Part shown: positions 1 to 61,548 of the stretch, one piece after another | How the letters are laid out: every line of letters starts with the position of its first letter | Numbering within the stretch: the stretch's first letter is position 1 | Virus record (IMG/VR): IMGVR_UViG_3300039008_000208 | Span: 1 to 64,000 of that record | Reading direction: 5' to 3' (one strand) | DNA: 64,000 nt | Source: a virus | Translations under genes and position numbers: made by a program | Notes under the pieces: model-generated | Told to the model about the DNA's origin: nothing | The model's database searches: none | The model's input: only the letters and a program-made list of their open reading frames with translations

Positions 1-1167
1 CCTCATTTCGTGAAGGAAGCAAAACGGTATTATGTAAAAGGATTTAAAGATAGCTGGTATGTCCTCCCTAAAACAACCAGTAAAGCAAATCCTGAAAACC
101 TTGCAGGACAGCACAACTACAACCTTTTAATCGTGGTTGACGAAGCATCTGGCGTTCCGGATGAAAACCACGGTGTATTACGTGGTGCGCTTACCGAAGA
201 GCGAAATCGCTATTTAATGGCTTCACAGCCAACCAGACCAAATGGACATTTTGCCGAAGCAATGACAACTCTTGCCAAAACTATTGATGGTGAGGAAGTC
301 AACGAAAGCGGTATCTATGATGCGTTTATTCTTAACTCGGAAGAAAGCCCACTCGTTTCTAAAAAATTTATCGCAGAAAAGCTTGTAGAATACGGTGGAC
401 ATCACAGCCCAGAATACCAAGTAAAGGTTTTAGGTCGTCTCCCAGATAATTTATCTGGCTACCTTATTCCAAAGCAATGGGCAGAACAAAGTCAGCACTA
501 CACAACTTTCTTTGCTCCAAATGAAGAATGGGGGTGGGTATTAACTGCCGACATTGGTGAGGGTACTCATCGTGACGCATCTGTCTATACGATTGCTCGA
601 GTTGGCGGCTATGGCATAGAAAGAAAGGTTATTTGTGTAGAACAGGAATCCTTTGTAGATAAAAATGAAAAAGAATTTGCTCGGCTACTTGCGACTATTT
701 ACCGGAACCCTAAGTATCCCAATTTGTCAATTGTCGTTGATGGAGATGGTGCAGGGCGTACAGTTATTCTTGAACTAGAAGAAATGGGGATACCGGTACA
801 ACCGATTCATTGGGGCTTACCTACTCACACAAGGGCAGATCAGAAGCGCTACTTAAACCTACGCGCATTTGCTCATCTCAAATTACGTGAAGCTATTTTT
901 GAAGAACGGTTCAAAATGGTTGAAAGTAAAGATTGGGTAAAAGAAGCATCAAAGCTGCCATACAGGATTGATGATAGAGGCCGTTATCAAATGTTCTCAA
1001 AGGAAAAAATGCGATCAGAAGGGATTCATTCTCCTGACCGATGTGACACAACTTGTTTCTTCTTCCTCGCAGACTATGTGCCGATGATCCGTGAAGAAAA
1101 ACAAACGACTAGCGTTGAAGATGATTTCAAAAAAGAAGCATTGGAGTTCTTAGATAATGTTGGGTAA
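1..1167 (+). CDS. terL: terminase large subunit, C-terminal part (5' end is upstream of the window)
   Basis: The frame is open from nt 1. It has a Walker-B-like LLIVVDEASGVPDE, then an RNaseH-like nuclease segment WVLTADIGEGTHRDASVYTIA. Its stop overlaps the next start (ATGTTGGGTAA). Confidence 0.7.
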   Translation, partial: PHFVKEAKRYYVKGFKDSWYVLPKTTSKANPENLAGQHNYNLLIVVDEASGVPDENHGVLRGALTEERNRYLMASQPTRPNGHFAEAMTTLAKTIDGEEVNESGIYDAFILNSEESPLVSKKFIAEKLVEYGGHHSPEYQVKVLGRLPDNLSGYLIPKQWAEQSQHYTTFFAPNEEWGWVLTADIGEGTHRDASVYTIARVGGYGIERKVICVEQESFVDKNEKEFARLLATIYRNPKYPNLSIVVDGDGAGRTVILELEEMGIPVQPIHWGLPTHTRADQKRYLNLRAFAHLKLREAIFEERFKMVESKDWVKEASKLPYRIDDRGRYQMFSKEKMRSEGIHSPDRCDTTCFFFLADYVPMIREEKQTTSVEDDFKKEALEFLDNVG

Positions 1168-7768: not shown

Positions 7769-8292
7769 TGCTAGCAGAAAAACTCACCCCTCGTGACCAT
7801 AGGCCGACGGCCTTGGTTGTCTCTAAAGATTTTAAGACAATGCTGGATCAGCATCCAGAAGCCTTTGATTGTCTAATTTTTAAAGCAAACCTTGAATCAG
7901 CCACTACTTCACAGGAAAATGTTTTAGTTCAAGACTTTGCAACTGGAATTGAATCTGACAGCCTTACTATTTCCTATGCTGATCCGATTCCAAGCAGGGC
8001 TAAAATTCATGTAGAGGAAGGACAGTTATTTTCATCATATGCTGATGGCGGTGATTCAATAGCAGGTAGTCCAGACGATAGTAGCCCAATGGTTCTACTG
8101 CTAAAGGAAGATTCTATTCCAAGGCAAAGTGTTGTTATGTGGAAGGAGATGATTGGGCAGGACGACACTGAAATAAAAGAAGTCTATATGTACATTTTAC
8201 ATAGTGCTTCGCATGGTGTTGCTCCAGTCATCGGTGTAAAGCACTACTGTATACCATTTGATGCAATTGGGGAGCTTGAGGTTAATGAATAA
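7768..8292 (+). CDS. hypothetical structural-operon protein
   Basis: 174-aa ORF whose start overlaps the upstream stop. Confidence 0.4.
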   Translation: MLAEKLTPRDHRPTALVVSKDFKTMLDQHPEAFDCLIFKANLESATTSQENVLVQDFATGIESDSLTISYADPIPSRAKIHVEEGQLFSSYADGGDSIAGSPDDSSPMVLLLKEDSIPRQSVVMWKEMIGQDDTEIKEVYMYILHSASHGVAPVIGVKHYCIPFDAIGELEVNE

Positions 8293-8995
8293 TTTAGAAT
8301 TCTCAGAGCTTCGCACCGTCGATATAGCATTGAGCGCTGTTATTAAGGGGGCGTTCGACAATCTTGCTCATACTAATTCTGATTCTTTTAACAGATTGCT
8401 GGATAAAGAGCCGCAAAGGTGGATGTTCAGAATTGATAAAAGTACCGCTTCTGAGGTGCTAAAAGAGATTCGAGCAGCAAGGAAGGGGGAAGGGAAGAGG
8501 CATGATCTACCTGATTTGCCAATTGTTAATTATTTTCGACCACCAACGATTTCAAACGGAGATCGAGTTGCCAAATTCCCTTACAGAGTAGGTTATGGGG
8601 AAAGACTGGCTGCATCTGTTAAAGCAAAACTTCTGCCGTTAGCACTTGATTATACGATAATGTTTATTGCGTGGGACAAGCAAACCGTCGAGCTTATGCA
8701 GCTTGCTTGGTATGCTTATGTAACTACTCGTCAGCATACTCGTTTTGTTGCCCCTATTAAATTCTGCGGAGATGATGATTTATTCCATCTCCCCTGTTCG
8801 ATATTAGACCCAAAGTCTATCATGTTTGATGACATCTCTGAAAAATCTCCAGATAGACGTCTGTATGCTATCTCCACGCAAATTACAGTTGAAACAACCA
8901 TGCTTGTTGGTTCTGGAATTGAGATTCCAGACCCTATTACTATCATTGGTGAATGCACGTCGTACATTAAGCGATTTTCGAAGAAGGCTCTATGA
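8285..8995 (+). CDS. hypothetical structural-operon protein
   Basis: The likely start is ATG 8285, overlapping the upstream stop (ATGAATAA). Confidence 0.4.
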   Translation: MNNLEFSELRTVDIALSAVIKGAFDNLAHTNSDSFNRLLDKEPQRWMFRIDKSTASEVLKEIRAARKGEGKRHDLPDLPIVNYFRPPTISNGDRVAKFPYRVGYGERLAASVKAKLLPLALDYTIMFIAWDKQTVELMQLAWYAYVTTRQHTRFVAPIKFCGDDDLFHLPCSILDPKSIMFDDISEKSPDRRLYAISTQITVETTMLVGSGIEIPDPITIIGECTSYIKRFSKKAL

Positions 8996-9978
8996 TGAAA
9001 GAGTTTAACCTTGTTCAAAAAATTATACATCAAGAGTCTGGAGAGGAGCTTGACTTAGCCTTCCTTCATTCATTTCTTTTTGTCGAAGAAATGACACTAG
9101 CTGCTCCTAAGTTAGTTTTAAAATTTAATGACGATTTAGCTTATATTCAAGATAAATTGCGCCTAAAACAGGGCGATAAATTAGAGCTTGTTCTTGCTGA
9201 TGTCTATACCCGTGATGGTATGCAAGAGTTGTTATTATTCAATATTCTTAGCTTATCAAAATCTGAAAGCATACTCGTTATTAACTGCCTATTTTCTCCT
9301 GTATGGGAGCTCAAAAAGCCAGCAATGAAAGCGCGAGCTTTTATTAGGCGTCACCCGACATATTGTCTTAAAAAACTATTTCCAACATTACAGGTAAAAG
9401 CTTCAAGGTGCTTTTCTGTAGAAGATTACCATATCCTTGTTGGAGAACGCCCTACTGCAATGTTGAATCAACTAGCGCAGGAACAAGGAGGGCATATCTA
9501 TGTCCAGCGGGATCATGTCTGTTTTTCTCGATTAGAAGATGGAATGAGTCAAAAAGCAGATTTTACGTATCACCACAATGATAGCAGACAGGCTAATCAG
9601 ATTATACAGCATAAAAAGCTCTCAGGTGAGGTTTTGCTGCGAGATAAGGTGAAACGCGAATATAAGGGCTGGAACCTGACAAAAGGCTTTGTGAAGGCTA
9701 GCACGAGCGATAAAAAGGTGCCTTCTGAATTATACCCATCTCAACATAAAGGAACTTTGAAAAAAATAGGAATAACACCGAATCCGAGTATTGATTTTAC
9801 TTGTGTTGGGAATGGCTTTTTAACGGCTGGCATGACTTTGGATTTGGTTTGGAATCTCGAAGATGATGAACGTATTTTTGATGAAAGTATGCCAGAAAGA
9901 GTGGTGGCATGGCTTGTGGCTCATTATTACTCTCAAGAAAAATATTACTGTAGAGTCAAAGGGGTTACTGTTTTATGA
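8992..9978 (+). CDS. candidate baseplate hub protein (gpD/gp27-like by position)
   Basis: 328 aa immediately upstream of, and overlapping, the spike gene. The call rests on position only. Confidence 0.3.
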   Translation: MMKEFNLVQKIIHQESGEELDLAFLHSFLFVEEMTLAAPKLVLKFNDDLAYIQDKLRLKQGDKLELVLADVYTRDGMQELLLFNILSLSKSESILVINCLFSPVWELKKPAMKARAFIRRHPTYCLKKLFPTLQVKASRCFSVEDYHILVGERPTAMLNQLAQEQGGHIYVQRDHVCFSRLEDGMSQKADFTYHHNDSRQANQIIQHKKLSGEVLLRDKVKREYKGWNLTKGFVKASTSDKKVPSELYPSQHKGTLKKIGITPNPSIDFTCVGNGFLTAGMTLDLVWNLEDDERIFDESMPERVVAWLVAHYYSQEKYYCRVKGVTVL

Positions 9979-10916
9979 CTGAGCAAGTAATTGGGACATC
10001 CCAAAAGAAGTATTTAGAAGAATACATTGGACGTGTCATTAATGTGCATGACCCTAAGCATCTCATGCGAGTGCAGGTTTTTGTTGAGTCTTTATTTGAC
10101 GGGATGAAAGAAAAAGACTTGCCGTGGGCAACGTATAAACTTCCAATTGGTGCTCGGTTAAATGAAGGGGCTATTACTCCGGTAAAGGTCGGAGATTATG
10201 TTTGGATCGATTTTCCGTTTAATGGAGATTCGCGACAGCCACGTATTACGGGGAGTGTTCATTATTGTCCGGATAATGTTTGTCATTTGCCGGATGAAGC
10301 TTGGAAAGGGAAAGAAATTTATAGCCATAAACGAATTGGAAGTGAGTTAGAGCCTAGTCCCGTTGGCTATCATCGGGATACCGTCATTGATCAACATGGC
10401 GTTCTTGTAGAAGTTGTTGACCCTACAGGTGAAATTCGAGTTACACAAAAAGTAAGTGGATCAGCAGTAGAGATAGATCGTGATGGAAATATCACTGCAC
10501 ATTCAGAAAAGAATTTATTTGGTTCCAGTAAAGAGAATACGGAACTTATTGTTGGGAAAGATTTTATTGGAACAGTGGAAGGAGATTCAATTCTTACGGT
10601 TCAAGGAAATTCAACTCTTGATTGTAAGAAGGATATCTTAGCAAAAGCTGGTGGGAAAGCGCAGGTAAGGGCAACTAAGTCTGCAACATTGGAAGCTCCT
10701 ACAATTTATTTATCTGGAAATGTGTCTTCTGCTGCATCTGATGGTGGGACGGCTACGGAAACGAAGAAGGCTAATACGACTCATACTGGGTCATATCGGC
10801 TGATCGGTACACTACATGTTGATAATATCAAATGTGAGGAAAAAATTACATGTAAAGGGAATGTGTCGGCTCCTTTTTTTGATGGAACTGCTAAATACGC
10901 AAATCAGATTGGTTAA
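9975..10916 (+). CDS. baseplate central spike (gp5/gpV/VgrG-like OB fold plus beta-helix)
   Basis: DLPWATYKLPIG...VKVGDYVWIDFPFNGDSRQPRITGSV matches the spike OB-fold signature. The C-terminus is repetitive and beta-helix-like. Confidence 0.6.
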   Translation: MTEQVIGTSQKKYLEEYIGRVINVHDPKHLMRVQVFVESLFDGMKEKDLPWATYKLPIGARLNEGAITPVKVGDYVWIDFPFNGDSRQPRITGSVHYCPDNVCHLPDEAWKGKEIYSHKRIGSELEPSPVGYHRDTVIDQHGVLVEVVDPTGEIRVTQKVSGSAVEIDRDGNITAHSEKNLFGSSKENTELIVGKDFIGTVEGDSILTVQGNSTLDCKKDILAKAGGKAQVRATKSATLEAPTIYLSGNVSSAASDGGTATETKKANTTHTGSYRLIGTLHVDNIKCEEKITCKGNVSAPFFDGTAKYANQIG

Positions 10917-10949
10917 AAAGAAGATGAGTGGCTTTCCACTCTTTTCTAC

Positions 10950-11293
10950 TTTTACTCTTTTAGTAAGCATTTATTCTTTTACTCTTTTACTTATATAATG
11001 ATAAAAAGGTATTTTTTGCTTATAAAGCTACATTTAGGATGTCTTAAAACTACATTTGGGATGCTTGAAAGCTACATTTAGGATGTTTGAAGCTACATTT
11101 AGGATGTTTGGAAGCTACATTTAGGATTAACCTAATTTGTAGCTTTTTTTGTACGGAAAACACCCCTTAAACCCTTATGTAGCACAGGTTATAGGGGTGT
11201 TCTGTGAGTTATTTTTTTATAAAAAGCTACATTTGGGATGGAAAGTAGAAGAAAGAACTTCCTTCCGTTGTCTTTAAAGCTACATTTAGGATG
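10950..11293. repeat. plasmid-type origin: AT-rich 13-mers plus iteron array
   Basis: TTTTACTCTTTTA occurs twice (10950, 10977). The iteron GCTACATTT(A/G)GGATG starts at 11027, 11049, 11071, 11092 and 11114 (21-22 bp phasing). There is an inverted partial copy at 11131-11143 and further copies at 11226 and 11279. Confidence 0.8.
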
Positions 11294-11382
11294 TTATAAA
11301 GCTCATGGCTTTTTCATTTTGAGCTTGATCCGCGTTCTTGTTCGCTGTAAATAAAAGAAGTTCTTTGAAGGAGAAAGCCCAA

Positions 11383-12645
11383 ATGCCAACGAACAGTAAT
11401 AACGAAAAGAAAGCAGGTGTAACGAACAATAGTGTTGTCGCAAAAGACAACTCGTTAATTTCGTTTTTATGCCGTTTTGACTTAACGGAGCTACGTTTTT
11501 TAACATTTTGCATTGCCCATTATGATAGTAGGAAGGGAAACTATAGCGTAACTACTCATGTTAGTGATTTTTGTAAGGTGTACAATATTACTAAGGGCAA
11601 AGCGTATAACCAGCTTAAGCAAATTTTTAGAGCATTTAACGAAAAGCCTTACGAGGCTCAGATAGGGAAAAAACAGATAATTCGAAACTGGTTTACTGGT
11701 GCGGATTATGATGGCGGGTATATTACCTTTACGTTGAATAAAGAGATAGAGCCGTTACTGTTAGAACTCAAAGGCTCTTTTTCAAAATACAGATTGCGAG
11801 ACGTAAGCAAAATACGATCTGCGGTTGCTTGGCGGCTCTATGAGAACTTAAATCAACGTCATGGCCTAAAAACGTGGACTGTTGAGCTCGAATTACTCAA
11901 AAGTTTATTAGGCATTGAAAATAAGCACCCTCGTTGGCAAAATTTAAAAATGCGAGTGATTGAACCTTGCTTGAAGGAAATCAACGAAGTTACTAATTTA
12001 GAGGTTTCATATCAGCCAGTAAAAAAAGGGCGTACCGTTGCCAGTGTCGCATTCTTTATTGACACTAAACAGCAGCCCGAAGTCATTACTCTTGGAAAAG
12101 AGAAAGAAGAACTTTTCAAAAAACTACTTGAAATGGGACTTGGAGAGGATAAAACTTCAGTGCTCACAGATAAGGCTGTAACATATGGATTATGTACAGA
12201 GCTTATTGAGAAAATTCCTGACTATCAAGAGCGATGGATGCAGAAGAAAATTGGGACGTTGTCCAGTGCTGTAGAGTTTTGTGTAAATGCTAGAATTGCA
12301 GAACTTGAAGTTGCAAATGATGAACAGCAGGGGGGAGAGGAACTTTACAGCCTTCTTTGTGATTGCGGCCTTGCTCAAAAGACTGCAATTACTTATGCCG
12401 AGAATGCATTACGGTACGGTGTTTATGAACACTTTTTGGATAAAGTTCCGACCCTCAAGGAGCGGTGGGAGCGGAAGAAATCGGGGTCGCTAGCCGCTTA
12501 TGTCACAGGGGTATTGAAACAAGAGCTTGCTAAACTTGATGAACCTAAAGTTCCTGATGAAGATATGTCTCCTCCCTCTAAGATGATGCCAGAAGATCGC
12601 CATGACGCTAACAACTGGAAACATCACCTTTCAAAAAACAAGTAG
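11383..12645 (+). CDS. Rep_3-family iteron-binding replication initiator with an extended C-terminus
   Basis: ATG 11383 is preceded by GGAG. VVAKDNSLISF...LTELRFLTFCIAHYD...AWRLYENL...SYQPVKKGRTV is typical of RepA/Rep_3 initiators. The gene is adjacent to the iterons. Confidence 0.75.
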   Translation: MPTNSNNEKKAGVTNNSVVAKDNSLISFLCRFDLTELRFLTFCIAHYDSRKGNYSVTTHVSDFCKVYNITKGKAYNQLKQIFRAFNEKPYEAQIGKKQIIRNWFTGADYDGGYITFTLNKEIEPLLLELKGSFSKYRLRDVSKIRSAVAWRLYENLNQRHGLKTWTVELELLKSLLGIENKHPRWQNLKMRVIEPCLKEINEVTNLEVSYQPVKKGRTVASVAFFIDTKQQPEVITLGKEKEELFKKLLEMGLGEDKTSVLTDKAVTYGLCTELIEKIPDYQERWMQKKIGTLSSAVEFCVNARIAELEVANDEQQGGEELYSLLCDCGLAQKTAITYAENALRYGVYEHFLDKVPTLKERWERKKSGSLAAYVTGVLKQELAKLDEPKVPDEDMSPPSKMMPEDRHDANNWKHHLSKNK

Positions 12646-12664
12646 TAGTAAAACAGATTTAAAA

Positions 12665-12696
12665 ATCCCCTCTTTTGCATGAGGGGATTTTTTTTT
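12665..12696 (+). terminator. Rho-independent terminator after rep
   Basis: Stem atcccctc / gaggggat followed by a T8 run. Confidence 0.75.
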
Positions 12697-12798
12697 GCGA
12701 AATACGACAGATAGATCATGTCACTCTCCCTTTTTTGGGAAAAGCTCTCTAGCGTGAGTTTTGATTTAAAAAAACTCAGAACTCTAAAGGGAAATTTT

Positions 12799-14496
12799 AT
12801 GAGTGACACTAAAGCATATCTTGAACAAATTCAGGATACTTCTACCCGTGCCGCAGAGATGAAAAAGGCACTGCTGTACCCAGTCCTTTCTGCCGAAGGT
12901 ACTTTCATGACAACTGCTGAGCAGAAGAAAGTTCTTAACGAAGGATCAATTGTCTCCGGCACCGTCTATGAAGGCGTTGGTGCATCTGGTGCTCTTTTGC
13001 TGGCACAGAACAGCCGTTCATTACAGCATTATTGTAACAAACACGGTATGCCATCTGACGATCTCCTTGCTTCTGCACATGTAGCCATTGAAAATGGCAT
13101 AAAGCTCTATGCTGACTCGCATGAACTTTCTGGCACAGGCTCCATTTTTGAAAGCGTCGGTACTGAGTATAAAGATGAAGCTCAGATGATTCTGGACTCG
13201 GCAAGCGACGCGCAGGAAGGCAAAACGCTGAATACTTCTGATGGCATTATCATGCGCGATCGCATGATTGGCCTTGTGTTGCCAGTAATGCTGCAAGGTA
13301 TTTCTCATCGTCTTGCTACTCACATTCCAGCACATGCGAACCAGTCTGAAATCTTCAAAATGTCCCGTGTTGCGATGAGCACTTTTGGTGGGCTGAAGAA
13401 GAATGACGTTATCGATGTGGACTACAATGGTTCTTACTCCTGCATGGATCAGCGCTGGCAAGCGCCATCCGGTGATGGAACAAAGAAAGGGGATAATGGT
13501 GAATTTAACCTTAACACCGCAGATGCTTTTGAGACAAAGTACCCCCTTAAGCCAAAACGCTGTCGCATTATTGTAGATCACAAAGTTGTTGGCGCAGATA
13601 ACGGCAGTGGCAACCTTTCTGGGCAGTTCAGCATCGGCGACACAGTCTATCAGGTCTTTGGCACCGCCAAGTATGCAGAAGGCAAGATTGAGCCTAAATT
13701 CGACAAGCCAATTCCGGCAGATGTTACCGTTCATATTGGCTTTGATGTCGATATCGAAAAAGACCCTACTCTCATTCCGCGTGTTGACCACTTGATGGAA
13801 AGTCGCACGCTTTACCCGCATGAATCCGCAATCAATGCTGGAACCACACTTCAGGCACTGTGGAATATGCGTCGCGAACACAATGTTGAGCTCGGCAGCA
13901 TGAACATGCAAGCTATGCGTAACTTGCTTGCAATGGACAAAGACCGGAAAGTCTTGAGTGACTTATGGTTCTTCGCAGAGCACTCTCCTGTCCGCGAATG
14001 GGATGCTAACTACAGCGACGTAACAAAGCTTGAACACTATCAGACCTTGAATGAAAAGTTGGTTGCTATCAGTTCTGAACTGATGCTTGCAACTCGTAAG
14101 TCTGGCCTTGTTTCTATTGTTGCTGATCCTCTTTCTGCTGCGATTCTCCGCTATATGCCAGCGCCATTCTTTGAACCCGTTGCTGGCTATCGTGAAATTC
14201 CACAGCCGCATTATGCCGGTAAATTGTTTGGTCGCTATGACTTGTTCATTGATCCTAGCGCTCCTGCGAATAAGCTTTTGTGCTGCGCTAAAGGCACAGG
14301 CTATGGCGAAGCCGGTTACGTCATTGGCGATGCTATTCCTGCATTGTCCTTTAAGCATCCAGTCATGTCCGAACTTCAGTACAAATCTACCCTGTGGTCT
14401 TTGGGGTATCGCGATATTCATCCGTATGATGGCGAAGACTACTTCATGATCTTGTCCATCAAAAACAACCCTGTAACTGAGTTCCGTCGCAAATAA
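12799..14496 (+). CDS. candidate major capsid protein
   Basis: ATG 12799 has AAGGGA upstream. 565 aa, highly expressed-looking ORF just upstream of the sheath gene. The C-terminal region resembles large HK97-fold capsid proteins. Not verified. Confidence 0.4.
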   Translation: MSDTKAYLEQIQDTSTRAAEMKKALLYPVLSAEGTFMTTAEQKKVLNEGSIVSGTVYEGVGASGALLLAQNSRSLQHYCNKHGMPSDDLLASAHVAIENGIKLYADSHELSGTGSIFESVGTEYKDEAQMILDSASDAQEGKTLNTSDGIIMRDRMIGLVLPVMLQGISHRLATHIPAHANQSEIFKMSRVAMSTFGGLKKNDVIDVDYNGSYSCMDQRWQAPSGDGTKKGDNGEFNLNTADAFETKYPLKPKRCRIIVDHKVVGADNGSGNLSGQFSIGDTVYQVFGTAKYAEGKIEPKFDKPIPADVTVHIGFDVDIEKDPTLIPRVDHLMESRTLYPHESAINAGTTLQALWNMRREHNVELGSMNMQAMRNLLAMDKDRKVLSDLWFFAEHSPVREWDANYSDVTKLEHYQTLNEKLVAISSELMLATRKSGLVSIVADPLSAAILRYMPAPFFEPVAGYREIPQPHYAGKLFGRYDLFIDPSAPANKLLCCAKGTGYGEAGYVIGDAIPALSFKHPVMSELQYKSTLWSLGYRDIHPYDGEDYFMILSIKNNPVTEFRRK

Positions 14497-14506
14497 GGGG
14501 GGCACA

Positions 14507-14941
14507 ATGGTTACGGTAGTTTTTAAAAATAATTCAGGTCGAACTGTTGAAGTTATCCATCAAAGAAAAACCCTGTGTTTCTTTGGGGGCGCTACTGTGA
14601 CTCATGACTTTGAAAGTTCAAAGCTCACAGATCAGTTCCTTGCCGATGTAAAACGCCGTTATCCAGCCATCCAAATTTCCCTTGTTGATAAAGAGGGGGA
14701 GGAATCTCCCCCTTCAGCGGGAACAGATGCAGGAAGTGCAAGTGATCCTGTCACCAAGAAAAAGGTAACTTTGGAAGAGTTTTCTGCTTTGGTGAAGGAT
14801 GCCATGCACTCTGGCACCGGATGGTGGACTGTGACCGTTGAAGGTGTTGAAAAACCTTTCAAGGTTCAGGCTGGAAAAAACAATAAAGAAAAAGCAATCG
14901 AAATGGCTTTTTCTGAATATTGTGAGGGCGTAGATGAATAG
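14507..14941 (+). CDS. hypothetical virion-module protein
   Basis: 144-aa ORF between the capsid candidate and the sheath gene. Confidence 0.4.
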   Translation: MVTVVFKNNSGRTVEVIHQRKTLCFFGGATVTHDFESSKLTDQFLADVKRRYPAIQISLVDKEGEESPPSAGTDAGSASDPVTKKKVTLEEFSALVKDAMHSGTGWWTVTVEGVEKPFKVQAGKNNKEKAIEMAFSEYCEGVDE

Positions 14942-16850
14942 TAAAATTACAAATGCCGCTGGAATTTACACTCAGGAGCCAATTGATAATACCTTTTCCT
15001 CTGGAGGCGGTGCGGTTGCTGTGGGCGGCACGGTAATTATGGCGAATAAAGGCCGTGTAGGCGTTGTTCAGCAGGTTCTTGAAACTAACTGGAAGAAGCG
15101 TTTTGGTAAGCCGTTGCCCAAAAAAATGGCAGGGATGGAAGGGCTTCGCCATCTCTCTGAAGCAACAAAAGACTGCAACTACGTACAAGTTGTTCGTGTT
15201 GTAGCAGCAGATGCAAAATACCCCCTCTTATCTCTGCGTCGTGCAGTAGACCGTGGCAAATGGAAATCTAAAACAGATTACGTTGCTGGTGATATTGTTC
15301 GTCATTCTGATGAGCTTACCATGCTTCGTGTTCTTGTAAATCACACTTCAGAAGATTCTGAGCCATCTACGGAATCTCTGAACGATAACTATGGCATTTT
15401 TTTCCAGCACAAAGGCACTGATAAGGGAGAATGGAAGGCTGCAACGTCATATGCGGTTGGCGATATTGCAAAGCTTTCAGATGGTACTCTGATTCGCTGT
15501 ATGAAAGAGCATACATCATCAGGGCAATCTCCTGTCGCAGATAAGCTTGGTGCAGAATGGCAGTACTTTACGTTGTCTGCGCCGGTTGAAAACTATTTTG
15601 ACGTTGATGCAAAAGCCTATGGAACCGAGGTGCTGAATGGTGATGATGATCTGATGATTGTCTCTCCTATTGACGGCGATCCTTCCATTAACCGTTCTTT
15701 GCGAATCGAAGAGCTCGATGAAAAAACAAAACGCTTCACTATGACATTTCTTGATAAGAATGAGCTTGGTGAAGAAGTTGTCCTTGAATCTCACACTGTC
15801 GGTATTGATCCAGATGATACGGACGACATGGGTGCTCCTGCGTACATTGAAACTGTTTTTGAAAACCAGTCGGGCGCATTCAAAGTGGACTGGAACGACA
15901 ATTACGCTTGGGAAGATGCAATTGATGCCCTTCGTGCAATTGAATCCGAAGATTTACGACCTACGCAAATTGCATTCAAGGGCGGTACGAACGGCGGAAC
16001 TCCAACCACTGAAGATTGGAAAAAAGCATGGAATCTCCTCCGCAATGAAGATGTCGTTGTTCAACTTTTGTTTGCAGGTGGTAACTATGATCCGGACGTT
16101 ATTGCTCATGCAGGTAGCATTGCTGACTTCCGACATTGCTCACTTGACTTTGATGCACCGCCGTACCTGAATCGGGAAGCCGCTATCAAATGGGTTCAGG
16201 ATGCAGGATTTAATTCTCGCCATATGCGTTGCTACCATGCCCCATATAAGGCCAACGACCCTTGGCGTGGTGGTAAAACTGTTTGGGGTGTTTCCGGATC
16301 GGCAGCGGCAGCAAAGGCACGTTGTAATTCTATGTTTCGAGGTGCTACTCCATGCGTCCACATGTCCCATGCTGGCGAAAAACGTGGATTTATTGAGCGC
16401 ACTGGCATCGTGGCATTGTACCCAGATAGCGAATTAGATCGTGATGCATTCTATAAGGCTCGCATTAACCCTGTAGTTCCATCTACCGGTGCTGGTGTCA
16501 TTATCGACGACAACCTGACTATGCATCATTTGGAAAACTACAGTCGCTTTGGTTGGGTTACGGACATTCTGGATTTCATCGATCACATCTATGAAGAAGT
16601 AGCGCATAACGCACAGCATGATGATGATGCCAATACGGTGCAAATTCTTACTGATGGCATGAAAACAAAGCTCGATGAACTCGTGGTGTCCGGTGCTTTA
16701 GTTCCTCCTCGCAATCCTGCCGTTGATGGCAATCAGCCGTATGTTCTGACGGTAAAGCAATTGAAAATTGATATGTGGTCTGTGCAGTGGGATGTCTGTC
16801 CTACTGGTTCTGCACGTCGCATCACAGGCCAGCCAAAAATGGTTAAGTAG
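14934..16850 (+). CDS. contractile tail sheath protein
   Basis: The N-terminus AGIYTQEPIDNTFSSGGGAVAVGG...WKKRFG...YVQVVRVV follows the conserved sheath pattern. 638 aa. Confidence 0.7.
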   Translation: MNSKITNAAGIYTQEPIDNTFSSGGGAVAVGGTVIMANKGRVGVVQQVLETNWKKRFGKPLPKKMAGMEGLRHLSEATKDCNYVQVVRVVAADAKYPLLSLRRAVDRGKWKSKTDYVAGDIVRHSDELTMLRVLVNHTSEDSEPSTESLNDNYGIFFQHKGTDKGEWKAATSYAVGDIAKLSDGTLIRCMKEHTSSGQSPVADKLGAEWQYFTLSAPVENYFDVDAKAYGTEVLNGDDDLMIVSPIDGDPSINRSLRIEELDEKTKRFTMTFLDKNELGEEVVLESHTVGIDPDDTDDMGAPAYIETVFENQSGAFKVDWNDNYAWEDAIDALRAIESEDLRPTQIAFKGGTNGGTPTTEDWKKAWNLLRNEDVVVQLLFAGGNYDPDVIAHAGSIADFRHCSLDFDAPPYLNREAAIKWVQDAGFNSRHMRCYHAPYKANDPWRGGKTVWGVSGSAAAAKARCNSMFRGATPCVHMSHAGEKRGFIERTGIVALYPDSELDRDAFYKARINPVVPSTGAGVIIDDNLTMHHLENYSRFGWVTDILDFIDHIYEEVAHNAQHDDDANTVQILTDGMKTKLDELVVSGALVPPRNPAVDGNQPYVLTVKQLKIDMWSVQWDVCPTGSARRITGQPKMVK

Positions 16851-16857
16851 GTACATT

Positions 16858-17622
16858 ATGGGAAATTTTGTTTTTGAACGTGATTCTGATTTTGCTGGCC
16901 TTGTAACTCTTGGTGTCGAACCAGCTTCGCCCGATACTTCTGCTGGTACTGATCAGCTTTTTGAGTCTGTAACGGTAGACGGTAAAAGCATCGATGATGC
17001 TCGTCTTCGTGCGATGGCGATGGGAGCAGTCATGACTTGGGTTGAACAGGGCGAATTTGACTACAGCGAACTTGAAGCCCTTGTTATCGGCGTTACTGAC
17101 CTCGATGGGGAAGAGGAAGTTTCTAAGGATGAGGAAGAGTTCTATTCCGCAGTTTGGGATGAAGTGCCTAATGCTTTGCTGTCCCTTGGCGGCTCTGCTG
17201 AAAACATTACAGACTTCATTGACAATGAAGACGATGATGCCGGTTCTCGCCTTGGCGCGCGCTTAAAAAAAGTGTTGGACGAAGAAACCGCAGAGGACAG
17301 TGAAATTGTGCTGGCCTTTGCAGAGGGTTCTGAAGACGCTCTTCTTGAAGGGGCGAATGAAGCAGATGATGGTGGCTTTATTTATGAATCCATCATGCAA
17401 GATAAAGATGGTAACGACATGCTGCTCGAAGCAGCATTTAAGAAAGTGAAAGTCATTAAAGATGGCAAAGTTACCATTAAGAAAAAGCGTGTTTCCGGAA
17501 AAGCTCGCCTTTCTGCTGCACAGAAAGCTGGTTTGAAAAAAGCGCGTCGTAAAGCAAATAGCGCAGCAGCACGCAAAAAGCGCAAAAAATCCATGAAGCA
17601 GCGTAAAGCCAGAGGTATGTAG
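16858..17622 (+). CDS. acidic protein with a highly basic C-terminal tail
   Basis: ATG 16858 follows the sheath stop. The body is D/E-rich and the tail is K/R-rich (KKRKKSMKQRKARGM). Confidence 0.45.
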   Translation: MGNFVFERDSDFAGLVTLGVEPASPDTSAGTDQLFESVTVDGKSIDDARLRAMAMGAVMTWVEQGEFDYSELEALVIGVTDLDGEEEVSKDEEEFYSAVWDEVPNALLSLGGSAENITDFIDNEDDDAGSRLGARLKKVLDEETAEDSEIVLAFAEGSEDALLEGANEADDGGFIYESIMQDKDGNDMLLEAAFKKVKVIKDGKVTIKKKRVSGKARLSAAQKAGLKKARRKANSAAARKKRKKSMKQRKARGM

Positions 17623-17624
17623 CG

Positions 17625-18242
17625 ATGGCTGCGCGGGGCGGGAAAACGGTTGGGGTTAATGACCCCGCCGTTTCACCGCACGTTAAAACGTGGATTATGC
17701 AAAATGGAATCATGGTCTGTGGGATAACATCTGAAGGTGCAGTAAAGGATGTTCAAGATAACTGGAACTCTCCTTTCGAAGGAGAAGCTGTGGGCAGTAA
17801 GTTTGCTAAGACTGGCGGCGTAATTCAATCTGGCCTCATAGAAGATACTGTCGGCATTGGAGCCGGATCAGGCCAAACGTCCATTAGCTTAATTCAATCA
17901 CGACAGGTATGGGAAGGCGCTCAGCCGCATTCATTTACTCTTCCTATCTGGTTTTATGCGCTGCAAGATGCATATTCTGAAGTTAGCCTTGCGTTACGGT
18001 ATTTAGAAGAATTCAGAAGTCCTGAATTAAATAATGCAACCCCCTTTGGACGCATTCCACAGCCTGTCACCATCAAAATTGGCAAGCGAGCCATTTACCC
18101 CAACTGTGTAATCGAAAGTCTTTCAGAGCCGCTTGATACACAGGTTGATAAAAACGGCTATCCAGTAACGTGCATGGTCAACCTGCAAGTTCAAACAAAG
18201 CAAATTATTAACAGGAGCCAAGTGGCTTCTCATTACGGTTAA
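17625..18242 (+). CDS. tail tube family protein candidate (gp19-like)
   Basis: 205 aa downstream of the sheath gene. The pattern WEGAQPHSFTLPIWFYA...VTIKIG...VIESLSEP...VNLQV is tube-like. Confidence 0.4.
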   Translation: MAARGGKTVGVNDPAVSPHVKTWIMQNGIMVCGITSEGAVKDVQDNWNSPFEGEAVGSKFAKTGGVIQSGLIEDTVGIGAGSGQTSISLIQSRQVWEGAQPHSFTLPIWFYALQDAYSEVSLALRYLEEFRSPELNNATPFGRIPQPVTIKIGKRAIYPNCVIESLSEPLDTQVDKNGYPVTCMVNLQVQTKQIINRSQVASHYG

Positions 18243-18253
18243 GGGAGAATCCT

Positions 18254-18784
18254 ATGGCTGTTATTTCCAATACAGGCAAAGCCAACATTCAGAAAGTCAA
18301 AAATAAACTCAAAAAAACGATGGCTCTTGGTGAATCAGTTAAGGGCAGTGAGTTCTCTGTCCAGATTGCTGGCTATCCAGACCTGTCCTTGTTGATTTCA
18401 TCTACTCAAATGGCACCAATGCAGCGTGAAGGCACAGAGCGCTTTGTAGCATTCGGGGCAAAAGTAAATGAGCAGGGGCGCTTTATGAATGCTCAGGACA
18501 TCACTTTTACCGTTGAACAGGTTGTTTCTGGTGCTTCTTACCGCGATCTTCGAAAAATTATCAAAAACAAAGAATACGTAGATATTGTGATTGGACTGGA
18601 AGGTGAATCCTTTGAAACAAATCCAGAAAACACCGTAAAACTTGAGTCTACATGGATCGAGTTGGAAGGCGCTGATGTTTCACATGAAGACGGAGCCGTC
18701 GGCATTAAAACATCCGGCACATTCCACGCAAACTGGGTTAGCTGGTTAGATGATGAGCAAGTAACCCTCCAAGGTGAAGGATAG
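18254..18784 (+). CDS. tail tube family protein candidate
   Basis: 176 aa. SEFSVQIAGYPDLSLLISSTQMAP...ITFTVEQ resembles tube/gp19-like beta-sandwich proteins. Confidence 0.4.
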   Translation: MAVISNTGKANIQKVKNKLKKTMALGESVKGSEFSVQIAGYPDLSLLISSTQMAPMQREGTERFVAFGAKVNEQGRFMNAQDITFTVEQVVSGASYRDLRKIIKNKEYVDIVIGLEGESFETNPENTVKLESTWIELEGADVSHEDGAVGIKTSGTFHANWVSWLDDEQVTLQGEG

Positions 18785-18789
18785 CACAT

Positions 18790-19368
18790 ATGACTCCAGC
18801 ACAGTTGCTTGAAGAAGCGAAAGATCAGTTCATTATTCTTTTCCATAACGAAGAATCAAAGCTGACAAGTCTGCTGCGTAAAGCACTTGGAGATTTTCAA
18901 GATAATGCTGGAGCTATGGCAAGCCTTTTAGTGGAAGACAAGGGGAGTGCAAAGCAATTCAGCTTGCCTCCCCATTTTCTTTCAACTGCCGTAGCGACAG
19001 ACAGCGATGGTGAATGGGTTTTTGTTGAAGAGTTTATTGAAGCAAACACAAATGAAAAAAAACTTCGCGCTGAAGTCGATGCAACAACTAAGTTCCCAGT
19101 CTCCGTTAAATATTTTTTAGATATTCAGCACTGGCCTTTGGATGAAGATTTACCGAATGGGGTTATTAATCCAACCCTAGATTATCTCGTGGCATTAATC
19201 GCAATCCCGAATACAGAACGAGAACGTGCTGTGATGCTCGCTAACGGTTCTCCTGTGGAGTTGCCAACGAAAGCTGAGTTGGAAGAAAAATGCGATAAAA
19301 TTAAAGAATCTTTGAGTGATAGAGCATTTCAGCTTCCTGTTGTCGCAGTATCAACAACTATGGGGTGA
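18790..19368 (+). CDS. hypothetical tail-module protein
   Basis: 192-aa ORF. Confidence 0.4.
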   Translation: MTPAQLLEEAKDQFIILFHNEESKLTSLLRKALGDFQDNAGAMASLLVEDKGSAKQFSLPPHFLSTAVATDSDGEWVFVEEFIEANTNEKKLRAEVDATTKFPVSVKYFLDIQHWPLDEDLPNGVINPTLDYLVALIAIPNTERERAVMLANGSPVELPTKAELEEKCDKIKESLSDRAFQLPVVAVSTTMG

Positions 19369-19371
19369 TGG

Positions 19372-19893
19372 ATGGTTATTCGTACTCGATCTGACAGTGC
19401 GATTGTCGCAAAAATGAAAAGGGCTGTGCAGCAATCACTTTCGACCCATTATCAGAAAGAATGTCTTTTTCGTATTGAGATTGAAGGGCAGCCTGATGAT
19501 TTTGCAATCTATGTAAAAGAAATCACACACGGATCGCCAGAAATTGAAACAGAACCCCAAAAGGTTGGCGTCACAGGGTTAAATTATCCAACGGGACTAT
19601 CTCCCGCTCCGTTGACCATGACGCTCTACGATAACGAAGATGAGCGCATTTACAAGTTCGTTAATGGACTACGCGAGCTCGTATACAACAAAGATGGCAC
19701 TGTTAATTTGCCGTTTGGTCAAGATGGGTACGTTAAGAAAATAAAAAAATTTAATATTGCTGAAGATGGAACGGAAACTCTTGCCGCAACGTGGGAAATG
19801 TTCGTCACGCAATGTGGTGAGATAACACAAACCTATGAAGGTAATGGACTGATGGAATTTTCCGCTACATTTTCATCTTTTAGAATTAAATAG
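19372..19893 (+). CDS. tube-like paralogue or tail-module protein
   Basis: 173 aa. CLFRIEIEGQPDDFAIYVKEITHGSPEIE...LTMTLYDNED repeats the pattern of the two ORFs above. Confidence 0.3.
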   Translation: MVIRTRSDSAIVAKMKRAVQQSLSTHYQKECLFRIEIEGQPDDFAIYVKEITHGSPEIETEPQKVGVTGLNYPTGLSPAPLTMTLYDNEDERIYKFVNGLRELVYNKDGTVNLPFGQDGYVKKIKKFNIAEDGTETLAATWEMFVTQCGEITQTYEGNGLMEFSATFSSFRIK

Positions 19894-19902
19894 AGGGACT
19901 TC

Positions 19903-20709
19903 ATGTCAACTATCCCAGAATGTTTTTTGCCGAGCAATCCTGACTGCGTTGTGCGCTTACGCATGGCTACAATAGAAGACAGTATTGATTTTTGTAATGT
20001 CCATGAGTTTGCAGAAGAAGAAAAAACAACATTATTCCTCGAAACAATTCAGGACAAGGCCACATATTCCAACCCCAAAAAGTGGACAGGTGATGATCGC
20101 CGCTTTGTTCTGTTTTGGTATTGGATTCACAGCAATGAAATCCATGACCTCATGCTTACATTTTCTTATCAATGTGCTGAATGTGGAGAAGAGCACTCTG
20201 TTGCGATTACTCAAGGCGAAATTGTTAATTCATTAACAGCGATTCAAGGCAAGCCCGAACGCGATATTACGGTTGATGAATTGAAGTTGACTGTTCGCCC
20301 GCTTGATGGTGCTGCTCTTGAAGAGCTTGAAGCGATGCAAATGCAGTATTTGGAGACAGTAGAAGAGTTTGGGGAACATTCAAAAGAAGCACAGCATGAA
20401 AAAGCAAAAAATAAGTTTGCGAAGCTGCTTTTCAGTGTGGCTTTTCCGGAAGAAGAAAAGAACGAAGCTAAAGATCGCGTTGCTTATCGTGAAGAAAAAT
20501 TGTTGAAACTCCCTTTTACTACCTACTCAAAGCTTGTTGAAGAACACAAACTTGCGCTCAAAGGTATGCAGCATGGTCTGCGAACTACATTCAAAAATGG
20601 CCAGCTCCTATTTGTTTCTGATTTGAAGAAATGTCCTAATAATCCTGACTCCAAGGGGGTTTCTTTAACATTCCCCTTTCGGATTGCGGACTATATTCCG
20701 CAAATATAG
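19903..20709 (+). CDS. candidate tail assembly chaperone (by position upstream of the tape measure gene)
   Basis: 268 aa. A +1-frame extension stays open to 20839 (see findings). Confidence 0.35.
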   Translation: MSTIPECFLPSNPDCVVRLRMATIEDSIDFCNVHEFAEEEKTTLFLETIQDKATYSNPKKWTGDDRRFVLFWYWIHSNEIHDLMLTFSYQCAECGEEHSVAITQGEIVNSLTAIQGKPERDITVDELKLTVRPLDGAALEELEAMQMQYLETVEEFGEHSKEAQHEKAKNKFAKLLFSVAFPEEEKNEAKDRVAYREEKLLKLPFTTYSKLVEEHKLALKGMQHGLRTTFKNGQLLFVSDLKKCPNNPDSKGVSLTFPFRIADYIPQI

Positions 20710-33794: not shown

Positions 33795-34388
33795 ATGCCT
33801 CAAGTTCGTCTTGATTTTGAGAAGCTAACAGAAGCTGGTTTGAAACCGGTAGTTAGGAAAATAGAAAAACATGGCCTTACAGTAGCAAGCATAAAAGCTA
33901 CAAATAAGGCTAAACGGATGTCGGGTTATCTAACAAAGTCTGTGATTTTTGTCTTTGATACAGGACAGCAGTTGGAAGTTTTGGTCAAAGCCGACGGGAC
34001 GGTTTTTCAGGTAAAATTAAACCGTAAGGTTGTACCTATTAAGGCTGTGTCTAACATTGACAAAGCAATTGTCGAGCTTGTTGATGCCGTACAGGATAAT
34101 GAAAGAAAATATTTGAAAGCCAAGAAACGTCGTGAAGCGCAGGTTGCTAAAAAACTTGCTACAGGTTCGCCTGCTCGGATCACTCGAAAAGAAAAACTTG
34201 ATAAAGCTAAAGCAATGCAAAGTGAGTTGCAGAGTGAGTTAGCAGTTTATCAAGAACGTATGCAGTCTCTTGATCTTGCCGATCTTCAAGCTCGACTTGA
34301 AGACAAGAAGGCAGAAGAAGCATTATTGCAAGAAAAAAATACCGAACTTAAATCAGAACTCGAAGGTTTGAAAAAGGAGGCTGTATAA
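33795..34388 (+). CDS. coiled-coil protein sharing its N-terminal module with the next ORF (Hdf-like relationship)
   Basis: 197 aa. SVIFVFDTGQQLEVLVKADG...KLNRKVVPI resembles QLPFSDGQSVSIIFHSPEGD...LLNKRDITHVV in the 745-aa ORF. Both segments are followed by coiled coil. Confidence 0.35.
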   Translation: MPQVRLDFEKLTEAGLKPVVRKIEKHGLTVASIKATNKAKRMSGYLTKSVIFVFDTGQQLEVLVKADGTVFQVKLNRKVVPIKAVSNIDKAIVELVDAVQDNERKYLKAKKRREAQVAKKLATGSPARITRKEKLDKAKAMQSELQSELAVYQERMQSLDLADLQARLEDKKAEEALLQEKNTELKSELEGLKKEAV

Positions 34389-46852: not shown

Positions 46853-47287
46853 ATGTTGAATTTAACATTTCTGAAGCCTTCAGAGGAAGAGTTAAAACCT
46901 GTCGTTACTTATGCAACGGAGGCTGTTGGGGAAGAGGCGTGGAGAGAATCTTTTTTAGTGAATATTGTTCAGCTTCTTCAAAAAAGGCCTCTTCAATATC
47001 GAGCTTTTGGGGCTTATTGGTGGCTTTTAAAAGCTGAACTTCTTGCGCTTAGTATCGATGTTTTTGGTGACGAAACAGATGCGGAATGGGTTGAAAAAAT
47101 AAATTATGGCCTATCTGTCACAAATATCGTTGCCGCCTTTATTTATTACGAAAAACGCATAGAGTTGGGGTTAATTTTTGAATCAAATCATTTGATTGAA
47201 TTGATTGATTCAGATGGTGACATCAATACCAAACCCTATGTGCTGCACGATCCGGAAATGGAAATATTGGCAGTCAGTCGGAAATAA
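46853..47287 (+). CDS. hypothetical protein
   Basis: 144-aa ORF between the large fusion gene and the portal gene. Confidence 0.4.
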   Translation: MLNLTFLKPSEEELKPVVTYATEAVGEEAWRESFLVNIVQLLQKRPLQYRAFGAYWWLLKAELLALSIDVFGDETDAEWVEKINYGLSVTNIVAAFIYYEKRIELGLIFESNHLIELIDSDGDINTKPYVLHDPEMEILAVSRK

Positions 47288-53129: not shown

Positions 53130-54107
53130 TTACGCGAATGTTACTCTTTCCGATTCTTCAAGCAACATATCGCCGTCTATATGCGCGTAAATTTCTGTTG
53201 TGGAGTAATGTTCATGTCCGAGCAAATCTTGCAATACACGCAGATTTCCGCCAGCCATAACAAAGAAGGATGCAAACGAATGACGTAGATCGTGAAGGTG
53301 CATATCATCACGACCTATCGCAACAAGCGCCTTTTTGATCCTTTTGCTGACGGTGTCGGGGTGAAGGCGTGAGAATACATATTCTCTATTTCGTGGAAGT
53401 TCCTCAAGGACAGAACGAAAAGTTTTGTTGATCGGGTAAAAACGACTAACGCGAGATTTCGATTTTAAGACAAGATATTTCCCTTTCCCAAGGTCAACAT
53501 CGCGCCATTTCAATTCTAACAACTCGTTCCTTCGGCGTCCTGTGCTCAAGTATGCCAAACACAACAAACGCATTTCTCCCTCAAGTTCTTCCAGTAACTT
53601 CTGAGCTTCATTCTTGGATAGATAACGAGGTGGCTGCTGTTCTTTCGGGAGTTGCCGAGCAGTTCTGAATGGATTCTCAATACTATACCATTCGCTAGCT
53701 TTGTTAAATATACTGCGAATGTGGCGTATGTAGTTATTGATAGAACTGACTTTTAAACCACGGTTTTTACATGCAGCCACCATCGCATCTAAATGCCTCG
53801 TCGTTACGTCAGAGACAAGTATATCGCCGGAACTGGACATAAGGTTTTCAAGTGCAAGCCTGTTCGCAGCAAATGTTTTCGCTGCCTGTACACTTTCTGC
53901 CCAAGCTAAATACTCTTTCTCAAAATCTTTGAGCTTTGTTTGAGATGGAGTATACGACTCAGCATTTAAGACCTGTTGGCATGTTTCAATATATTTTTGC
54001 ATTGCCTCTTTATAGGATGTTGTTCGCAACGAACGTCTTTTTTTCCCGACCTCAATATAATAGCTTGGCCTGTTCGGTAACTTGAACGGCTTGCGTACAT
54101 GCAACAT
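53130..54107 (-). CDS. tyrosine recombinase (integrase or plasmid dimer resolvase)
   Basis: STGRRRNELLELKWRDVD and HLHDLRHSFASFFVMAGGNLRVLQDLLGHEHYSTTEIYAHI give the R..HxxR..Y catalytic pattern. The start at MLHVRK has GGGAGAG upstream. Confidence 0.8.
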   Translation of the reverse strand: MLHVRKPFKLPNRPSYYIEVGKKRRSLRTTSYKEAMQKYIETCQQVLNAESYTPSQTKLKDFEKEYLAWAESVQAAKTFAANRLALENLMSSSGDILVSDVTTRHLDAMVAACKNRGLKVSSINNYIRHIRSIFNKASEWYSIENPFRTARQLPKEQQPPRYLSKNEAQKLLEELEGEMRLLCLAYLSTGRRRNELLELKWRDVDLGKGKYLVLKSKSRVSRFYPINKTFRSVLEELPRNREYVFSRLHPDTVSKRIKKALVAIGRDDMHLHDLRHSFASFFVMAGGNLRVLQDLLGHEHYSTTEIYAHIDGDMLLEESERVTFA

Positions 54108-54150
54108 GCATAGCTCTCCCATAAGAATAAAACATTTTCACAACATCATT

Positions 54151-54220: not shown

Positions 54221-54254
54221 AAAAACCCCTACTGCGAACATTCGTAGTAGGGGG
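54221..54254 (-). terminator. Rho-independent terminator (minus strand) upstream of the recombinase gene
   Basis: Stem cccctactgcg / cgtagtagggg. The minus-strand transcript ends in UUUUU. Confidence 0.65.
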
Positions 54255-58039: not shown

Positions 58040-58058
58040 AGCTCACTCCTTTTACCGA

Positions 58059-61546: not shown

Positions 61547-61548
61547 AA

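Follow-up and report, generated by a model that had tools for sequence, protein, structure and literature searches.

How does a tailed phage come to carry the replication origin and initiator gene of an iteron plasmid amid its structural genes, and what would such a cassette do there? The question is raised by the region 10.9-12.7 kb of the viral DNA analysed here (IMG/VR record IMGVR_UViG_3300039008_000208, positions 1 to 64,000; this whole 64-kb stretch is called the window), where an earlier note had described phased iterons and a Rep_3-like initiator gene, rep, and had read the element as a phage-plasmid. We use this term as Pfeifer et al. 2021 do (PMC7969092). The reading is supported in silico by the profile matches and predicted fold of Rep, a circular assembly of the parent element, a parA gene, a P1-type backbone and the position of the replicon in the slot used by P1. 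Judging from its sequence, the region is most likely a self-contained, terminator-bracketed theta-type plasmid replicon, and we put the probability that it serves as the plasmid-maintenance replicon of a ~94-kb circular phage-plasmid of the P1 supergroup at roughly 0.75.

An iteron origin between the baseplate and capsid genes

The cassette lies between the baseplate spike gene and the capsid and sheath genes; this position, given in the earlier note, is borne out by the Phage_base_V, Gp23 and sheath assignments of the flanking genes. The features of the region are, in order:

9975..10916, plus strand: homolog of P1 gene 5 encoding the baseplate hub/spike, with which the baseplate block ends; Pfam Phage_base_V, phrog_430 (1.6e-30)
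10926..10941, plus strand: intrinsic-terminator-like hairpin GAGTGG-CTTT-CCACTC with a T-run, closing the baseplate operon before the origin
10942..11026: AT-rich stretch of 85 bp (81% AT, by composition), directly upstream of the iteron array
11027..11129, plus strand: five-iteron array (G/A)CTACATTT(A/G)GGAT(G/T), from the repeat search
11159..11201, no strand: imperfect hairpin AACACCCCTTAAACC / GGTTATAGGGGTGTT, enclosing the inverted partial iteron
11167-11183, minus strand: inverted partial iteron copy, GCTACATAAGGGTTTAA
11226..11240, plus strand: isolated iteron copy 6, from the repeat search
11274..11301, plus strand: putative rep promoter, read by eye, with a -35 element TTTAAA (11274-11279) and an extended -10 element TGtTATAAA (11293-11301)
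11383..12645, plus strand: rep, encoding a 420-amino-acid (aa) Rep_3 initiator; ATG at 11383, GGAG at 11371-11374, 8 nt upstream
12661..12692: strong hairpin with a 12-bp stem and T-runs on both sides, bidirectional terminator-like, between rep and the capsid gene
12718..14496, plus strand: major capsid protein (P1 gene 23 homolog); Pfam Gp23, tblastn to the D6/P1/P7 capsid 27% identity, 4e-52
14934..16850, plus strand: tail sheath (P1 gene 22 homolog); phrog_1036 (1.8e-107), 35% identity to the D6 sheath

A repeat search recovers five iterons at 21-22 bp phasing and two further copies at 11226 and 11279, just as they had been described. The sequence CTACATTTRGGAT occurs in seven exact copies starting at 11028, 11050, 11072, 11093, 11115, 11227 and 11280 (11027, 11049, 11071, 11092, 11114, 11226 and 11279 when the leading G or A is counted). 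The spacings are 22, 22, 21 and 22 bp, i.e. about two helical turns, followed by 112 and 53 bp. The consensus proposed in the earlier note holds overall, the departures being copy 2, whose first base is A and not G, and copy 5, whose last base is T and not G; the inverted partial copy reported there was also found again. All five phased and both further iterons lie no more than 356 bp upstream of the rep ATG. Every exact copy of the repeat is confined to the 265 bp between 11028 and 11292, in the window as well as in the ~92.5 kb of the element that were assembled from the window and neighbouring contigs (all but ~1.45 kb of the circle described below). Allowing up to two mismatches yields 12 matches compared to a mean of 2.85 in shuffled sequences, and none of 100 dinucleotide shuffles reaches 12.

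The AT-rich block directly upstream of the array holds a repeated 14-mer, with two copies of CTTTTACTCTTTTA (repeat family at 10943-10962 and 10970-10989), and is a candidate DNA-unwinding element. On the side of rep, iteron copy 7 (11279-11293) is located in the spacer of the putative promoter. As it sits between the -35 and the extended -10 element, the arrangement suggests that Rep may repress its own synthesis. The ori-rep cassette has the lowest GC content of its neighbourhood, and the segment comprising the origin and rep is identical across five independent contigs. GC skew tracks the direction of transcription and is uninformative on the origin.

Rep is related to plasmid initiators

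By sequence and predicted fold Rep is a Rep_3 initiator of the RepE/pi type, in agreement with the Rep_3-like protein of 420 aa that had been noted before. Profile searches identify Pfam Rep3_N (PF01051, WH1) at residues 19-156 with an E-value of 1.5e-29 (103.6 bits, cutoff 22.4) and Rep3_C (PF21205, WH2) at residues 169-225 with an E-value of 2.5e-17 (63.3 bits, cutoff 21.1). The NCBIfam RepM and RepE models are matched as well, below their family cutoffs, and a sequence search of the PDB returns RepE at ~1e-10 over residues 47-225. In an AlphaFold model built on nine homologs, whose WH1-WH2 blocks mostly have a predicted local distance difference test score (pLDDT) of 70-91, these two domains are followed by two four-helix modules (residues ~239-312 and ~319-385) and a disordered acidic and Pro-rich tail. 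Foldseek searches with this model retrieve only iteron-binding initiators, namely RepE54-iteron complexes (E-value 2e-8, template modelling (TM) score 0.58-0.64 on the target), pi (5.8e-7), RctB and pPS10 RepA.

The relatives of Rep point in the same direction. Of its nearest homologs we examined three. Two are encoded on contigs of cable-bacteria metagenome-assembled genomes (MAGs) together with plasmid genes, either for a relaxase, a type IV coupling protein and MobC or for a toxin-antitoxin pair, and one is found on a small contig that has a weak integrase-family match. Upstream of rep all three have three or four iterons, each set with its own sequence and with exactly 22-bp phasing. The best match to Rep in PLSDB is encoded on a Pseudodesulfovibrio plasmid (36% identity). 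Because of these plasmid genes and phased iterons, together with the Pseudodesulfovibrio match, the sequences place Rep in a lineage of bona fide plasmid initiators with a conserved origin layout. With Rep_3 iteron plasmids (mini-F RepE, R6K pi, pPS10 RepA, Acinetobacter RepM and the Desulfobacterota plasmids of Pseudodesulfovibrio and cable bacteria) the element shares the WH1-WH2 fold of the initiator, the phased direct repeats beside its gene and the AT-rich DNA adjoining them. In contrast to these, the gene is here carried by a tailed-phage genome.

The C-terminal half of Rep (residues ~237-386, window 12091-12540) consists of two tandem copies of a four-helix module of ~70 aa, with 31% identity between the copies (E-value 7e-13), and no Pfam family covers this module. 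The nearest homologs, which are 34-41% identical and ~360 aa long, have a single copy followed by a Cys-rich zinc-ribbon-like tail (CW..C.VR.RG.AG.RKKC..C). The phage Rep lacks this tail and has the second module copy in its place. The Electronema and Electrothrix contigs, on which the closest named homologs are found, also contain large toxin genes of the RHS/YD-repeat type. In addition, rep is flanked there by an H-NS-like gene upstream and by short open reading frames (ORFs) with Rep3_N fragments downstream.

A divergent P1-type backbone with the replicon in the P1 slot

Based on its genes the element is a myovirus of the P1 supergroup, the known members of which are phage-plasmids. Compared locally with D6, the element encodes ~25 homologs of D6/P1 proteins, with 24-42% aa identity and in largely the same order. 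They include pacB, 26, 25, 6, 5, 23, 22, 21, pmgG, pmgC, tub, pmgB, sit, bplA, 16, darA, darB, ulx, prt, pro and pmgM. The large terminase shows 38-42% identity to D6 PacB, and the hub protein 29% identity to D6 orf66, which is annotated as similar to P1 gene 5. Matches to the capsid protein in a set of 50,697 phage records come almost only from P1, P7, D6 and relatives (punaviruses). Among plasmids 929 records match, the best being Vibrio, Photobacterium and Alteromonas plasmids with 37-38% identity, and a capsid scan of GTDB species genomes gave no relative. Megablast of positions 8000-20000 found no match in phage and plasmid records. Membership in the P1 group is thus seen in the shared order of the morphogenetic core, and the element falls outside genus-level nucleotide relatedness.

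The homologs of the antirestriction proteins DarA, DarB and Ulx of P1 and D6 are encoded at window positions 34388-36625, 40523-46840 and 46853-47287; the DarB homolog has 2,105 aa and shows 34% identity over 1,855 aa. Since all three have been retained at such a great evolutionary distance, an ancient P1-type core appears to include the Dar system.

The order in the window is gene 5 homolog, five iterons, rep, gene 23 homolog, a small ORF and gene 22 homolog. P1 (NC_005856), read in the orientation of the capsid gene, has PAAR/upf genes (upfC to upfA), oriR/incC with five 21-bp-phased iterons, repA, incA, parA, parB, parS, 23 and 22. Judged by this order, the replicon occupies the P1 slot upstream of genes 23 and 22. 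It has the same orientation, follows a block associated with the baseplate or spike and immediately precedes 23 and 22. As in P1, rep follows five iterons spaced by ~21 bp, and its putative promoter would be overlapped by an iteron, as the P1 promoter is by iterons. Further likenesses are a separate replicon elsewhere in the genome, lytic in P1 and probably so here, a genome of ~94 kb, a PacB-type terminase and the ~25 morphogenesis and Dar genes (compared via D6).

There are also clear differences to P1. P1 RepA is a weak Rep_3 member by profile (Pfam Rep3_N, 25.7 bits, cutoff 22.4), whereas a BLASTP comparison of Rep with P1 RepA is not significant, so that the two are linked at the profile level only. 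The origin of the element has no DnaA box or GATC cluster, and no incA-like array follows downstream. Its parA is Soj-type and ~20 kb away from rep, while parAB is adjacent to the replicon in P1, and the two genomes share no similarity at the nucleotide level. For c1, lpa, repL, cre/lox and phd-doc, tblastn gave no match with E<1e-4 to the D6 counterparts, for which the D6 annotation gives the equivalents in P1.

The Escherichia phage D6 (MF356679), a P1-like plasmid prophage, provides a second comparison. Its orf42, located among tail genes, is annotated as pfam01051 Rep_3. An AT-rich stretch and about five phased iterons lie upstream of this gene, and the par genes of D6 are found elsewhere. 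D6 Rep and the Rep described here are distant relatives (21% identity over 208 aa, E-value 2e-9). In contrast to the element, D6 has rep between pmgB and tub and not at the junction of genes 5 and 23, a DnaA-box-like site, and a Rep of 251 aa without the C-terminal extension. D6 also encodes StbA/StbB with a ParA-like protein, a Cre-like recombinase with a rox site and the C1 repressor, none of which were detected in the element.

The P1-related plasmids of Vibrionaceae and Alteromonas (p0908, NC_010113; V. campbellii, NZ_CP050473) are circular, come from cultured marine bacteria and have the closest capsids (37-38% identity over the full length). Their local order of baseplate V, capsid, small ORF and sheath is the same, but no rep lies between hub and capsid, and the replicon (rep_cluster_1599) is located elsewhere. 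The tail region of p0908 contains a diversity-generating retroelement (Avd, reverse transcriptase and a SUMF1/formylglycine-type target), and nothing comparable was seen in the window.

Replacement of the replicase at a fixed position has been described for the P1 group, in which one subgroup also has rep and par separated (Pfeifer et al., PMC7969092). Because of this and of the Rep_3 initiator of D6, the architecture found here is precedented in all essentials. A replicon embedded among structural genes is the norm for the P1 group and not an oddity.

The parent element is a circular assembly with a distant parA

To follow up the circularity check proposed in the earlier note we inspected the parent contigs. 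An identical Rep is encoded on Joint Genome Institute (JGI) contigs of 94,116, 94,101 and 94,115 bp from three metagenomes, with differing breakpoints. The ends of the 94,115-bp contig overlap exactly over 141 bp and the junction is continuous in the window, giving a circular assembly of ~93,974 bp; the gene immediately upstream of the first base of this contig is found at its far end. No host or chromosomal flanks are present on the contigs inspected, which come from roughly 9-11 datasets with the element. The check thus returned a ~94-kb circle represented by permuted contigs.

The search for par genes outside the window, which the earlier note had proposed, found a Soj-type parA with a small ORF downstream of it. 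The parA gene encodes 292 aa (CbiA/AAA_31) and lies ~9 kb beyond the left end of the window, at a distance of roughly 20 kb from rep. Its product is closest to Thermus Soj (3e-38) and has an insertion of roughly 35 aa relative to it. The gene is followed by an ORF of 114 aa and a terminator (contig L088:10001-11257). Just upstream of parA, a 14-nt perfect inverted repeat surrounds 85 bp of AT-rich DNA. A separate 380-aa protein (contig L088:15172-16314) has only a faint ParB_N match, and a 194-aa RdgC-like protein is reminiscent of P1 hrdC.

The set of genes for morphogenesis, packaging and lysis is complete and comprises TerS, TerL, portal, protease, capsid, sheath, tube, baseplate, a Sit-like protein, a fibre region and a GH108 endolysin. 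The endolysin, TerS and TerL, the latter with a mini-intein, are located to the left of the window. The large terminase gene (PacB homolog, 646 aa) spans contig L080:8071-10011, with window positions 10-1167 forming its C-terminal part. The mini-intein of ~137 aa (Pfam Hom_end_hint) interrupts the Walker A motif (...SGHG|CFSAG...ILHN|TGKS...).

A second replication module and a tyrosine recombinase

A second replication module is located just to the right of the window (contig L084:11002-14567, equivalent to window positions ~64,057-67,620). It encodes a 389-aa initiator-like protein (phrog_9474, 1.2e-15), a DnaC-like loader and DnaB. The coding sequence of the initiator contains 11-bp-periodic repeats at L084:11475-11560, 11576-11604 and 11658-11696, and such an origin-like array inside an initiator gene is reminiscent of lambda O/ori-lambda and of P1 repL/oriL. 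The second module probably drives lytic replication, mirroring the split between oriR and oriL of P1.

A tyrosine recombinase is encoded on the minus strand:

53130..54122, minus strand: tyrosine recombinase; Pfam Phage_integrase, 1.6e-29

Searches of phages, plasmids and the PDB gave remote matches only. The protein resembles P2-type integrases and Xer proteins distantly, with at most 29% identity to assorted integrases and Xer proteins, and its best PDB matches are the integrase 5c6k followed by XerC-like, XerA and XerD structures. It shows no similarity to the Cre-like protein of D6 (E-value 0.11). No lox- or dif-like inverted repeat was found beside the gene, where only a terminator-like 13-nt pair is present (54226-54253). 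The recombinase may act in integration, cyclisation or dimer resolution, the last of which the earlier note had suggested in place of integration.

Plasmid maintenance and alternative roles of the cassette

In the reading that we favour, Rep monomers would bind the five phased iterons and open the adjoining AT-rich DNA for loading of the replicative helicase. Rep bound to the promoter-proximal iteron would limit Rep synthesis. Pairing of iterons (handcuffing), together with the distant Soj-type parA, may then result in a stably inherited extrachromosomal prophage, for which we infer a low copy number from the iterons plus parA. Lytic growth would proceed via the second module to the right of the window, with its repeat-containing initiator, DnaC-like loader and DnaB, and the two replicons would thus divide the labour.

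A number of observations weigh against this scheme. The rep promoter, which was read by hand, does not appear in a consensus promoter scan, and no DnaA box with at most one mismatch was found between 10917 and 11382. The nearest match (10817-10825) falls within the hub gene, and across the window such boxes occur about as often as expected by chance. DnaA boxes in the origin are common to many, although not all, Rep_3-type replicons. A second, incA-like iteron array was not found in the ~92.5 kb of the element, the 114-aa ORF that would encode the ParA partner has no family match, and a search around parA gave no parS-type repeat array. The presence of the tyrosine recombinase means that an integrated state may be possible. 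Pfam, PHROGs and the comparison with D6 revealed no recognisable gene for immunity or addiction, be it for a repressor, an antirepressor, Lpa or phd/doc. This search covered ~60 non-structural ORFs by Pfam and/or PHROGs and about 110 genes in all but ~1.45 kb of the circle by precomputed Pfam or scans, many ORFs having no family match; among the about 110 genes there was no recognisable helix-turn-helix (HTH)-type repressor, Lpa-like activator or toxin-antitoxin pair. Finally, the circular assembly is no proof of a plasmid state because a PacB-like terminase is expected to produce headful, circularly permuted virion DNA, which also closes as a circle.

The last of these points leads to the alternative that survives best, in which the Rep_3/iteron cassette serves as the only vegetative origin, or as one of several, in a virulent or integrative phage, and the circles reflect headful-packaged permuted DNA. 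Besides the PacB-type terminase, the lack of a recognisable repressor and the integrase-family gene agree with this, and Rep_3 genes do occur in phage records not known as plasmids, such as a Skunavirus (database match). However, a complete module of initiator, DnaC-like loader and DnaB with an origin-like array is already available for lytic replication, a Soj-type parA has no obvious use in a purely lytic phage, and the characterised relatives of the backbone, P1, P7 and D6, are plasmid prophages. Iteron replicons such as those of RepE, pi and P1 RepA are moreover copy-limiting and ill-suited to runaway lytic replication. We therefore regard a vegetative role as improbable.

Less probable still is a temperate phage that integrates by means of the tyrosine recombinase and carries the Rep_3 cassette as captured plasmid cargo, dispensable for maintenance and either inert or serving incompatibility with, or exclusion of, resident plasmids. 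Capture would fit the affinity of Rep to plasmid genes of another lineage and the low GC content of the cassette relative to its neighbourhood, and the recombinase is as similar to P2-type integrases as to Xer proteins. Cargo of this kind is difficult to reconcile with an intact ORF, seven perfect iterons, insulation by terminators and identity in five contigs. In addition, the cassette sits in the slot of the functional P1 replicon, parA is present too, and host DNA is missing from the inspected contigs. A decayed P1-like phage-plasmid that kept Rep_3 replication and lost virion production, as P1-like plasmids without phage function have been reported (PMC10879196, PMC13221032) and as the many ORFs without assignable function might suggest, is very unlikely, as TerS/TerL, portal, protease, capsid, sheath, tube, baseplate, tail-fibre region, DarA/DarB and endolysin are long intact ORFs in P1 order and no truncations were seen.

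Host and significance

The host of the element is uncultured, probably belongs to the Desulfovibrionaceae and is probably sulfate-reducing. This assignment is based on the DnaB identity, the GC match and the affinity of Rep to Desulfobacterota plasmids. The best matches to the DnaB of the element (L084:13176-14567) are the DnaB proteins of a Halodesulfovibrio MAG, with 76% identity, and of a Desulfovibrionaceae MAG, with 75%, compared to 50% for the next-best matches, and the GC contents in the comparison of element and Halodesulfovibrio MAG agree well (43.5% versus 43.0%). In the Halodesulfovibrio MAG dnaB is found in a chromosomal rpsF-rplI-dnaB context that has nothing else in common with the element. 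The sequences suggest that the element captured its dnaB recently from the host.

Good documentation of phage-plasmids exists for enterobacteria, Vibrio, Acinetobacter and some Firmicutes. Searches of a paper library found no report of one in sulfate reducers, and a preprint in which Halodesulfovibrio and viruses are mentioned is unrelated to the element. The element is probably a very divergent P1-type phage-plasmid with a different Rep_3 lineage in the canonical slot and a host group without described examples. Conceptually this is nothing new, since the architecture is known, and the novelty is modest. With it, the P1-type body plan reaches a very distant lineage and probably a host among the Desulfovibrionaceae. 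Its virion and Dar modules are conserved, while the replicon, partition genes and regulators are all different, and the slot upstream of the capsid gene holds a replicon both in P1 and here.

More tentatively, and with less than even confidence, it might be the first P1-supergroup phage-plasmid of sulfate-reducing Desulfovibrionaceae (Halodesulfovibrio-like), with a replicon captured from Desulfobacterota plasmids into the inter-block junction at which P1 has its replicon, and the remodelled C-terminus of Rep might retarget helicase recruitment to the element's own, host-derived DnaB and DnaC-like loader. If this were true, the gene-block junction would be a hotspot of ancient origin at which replicons are swapped across phyla. 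In practical terms, the 1.8-kb cassette is a candidate vector replicon for Desulfovibrionaceae, and the element could transduce in anaerobic sediment or enrichment communities.

Other genes in the window

Towards the right end of the window, a block of DNA-metabolism genes occupies positions 57740-62838 on the minus strand, with a DUF5131 gene to its left:

55079-55993: DUF5131, left of the DNA-metabolism genes
57740-58039, minus strand: HU-like protein
58059-59861, minus strand: UvrD-family helicase
59812-60420 and 60413-61546, minus strand: apparently split SbcC-like pair, consisting of the SbcC C-terminal piece and AAA_23, respectively
61549-62838, minus strand: 429-aa ORF with no assigned function

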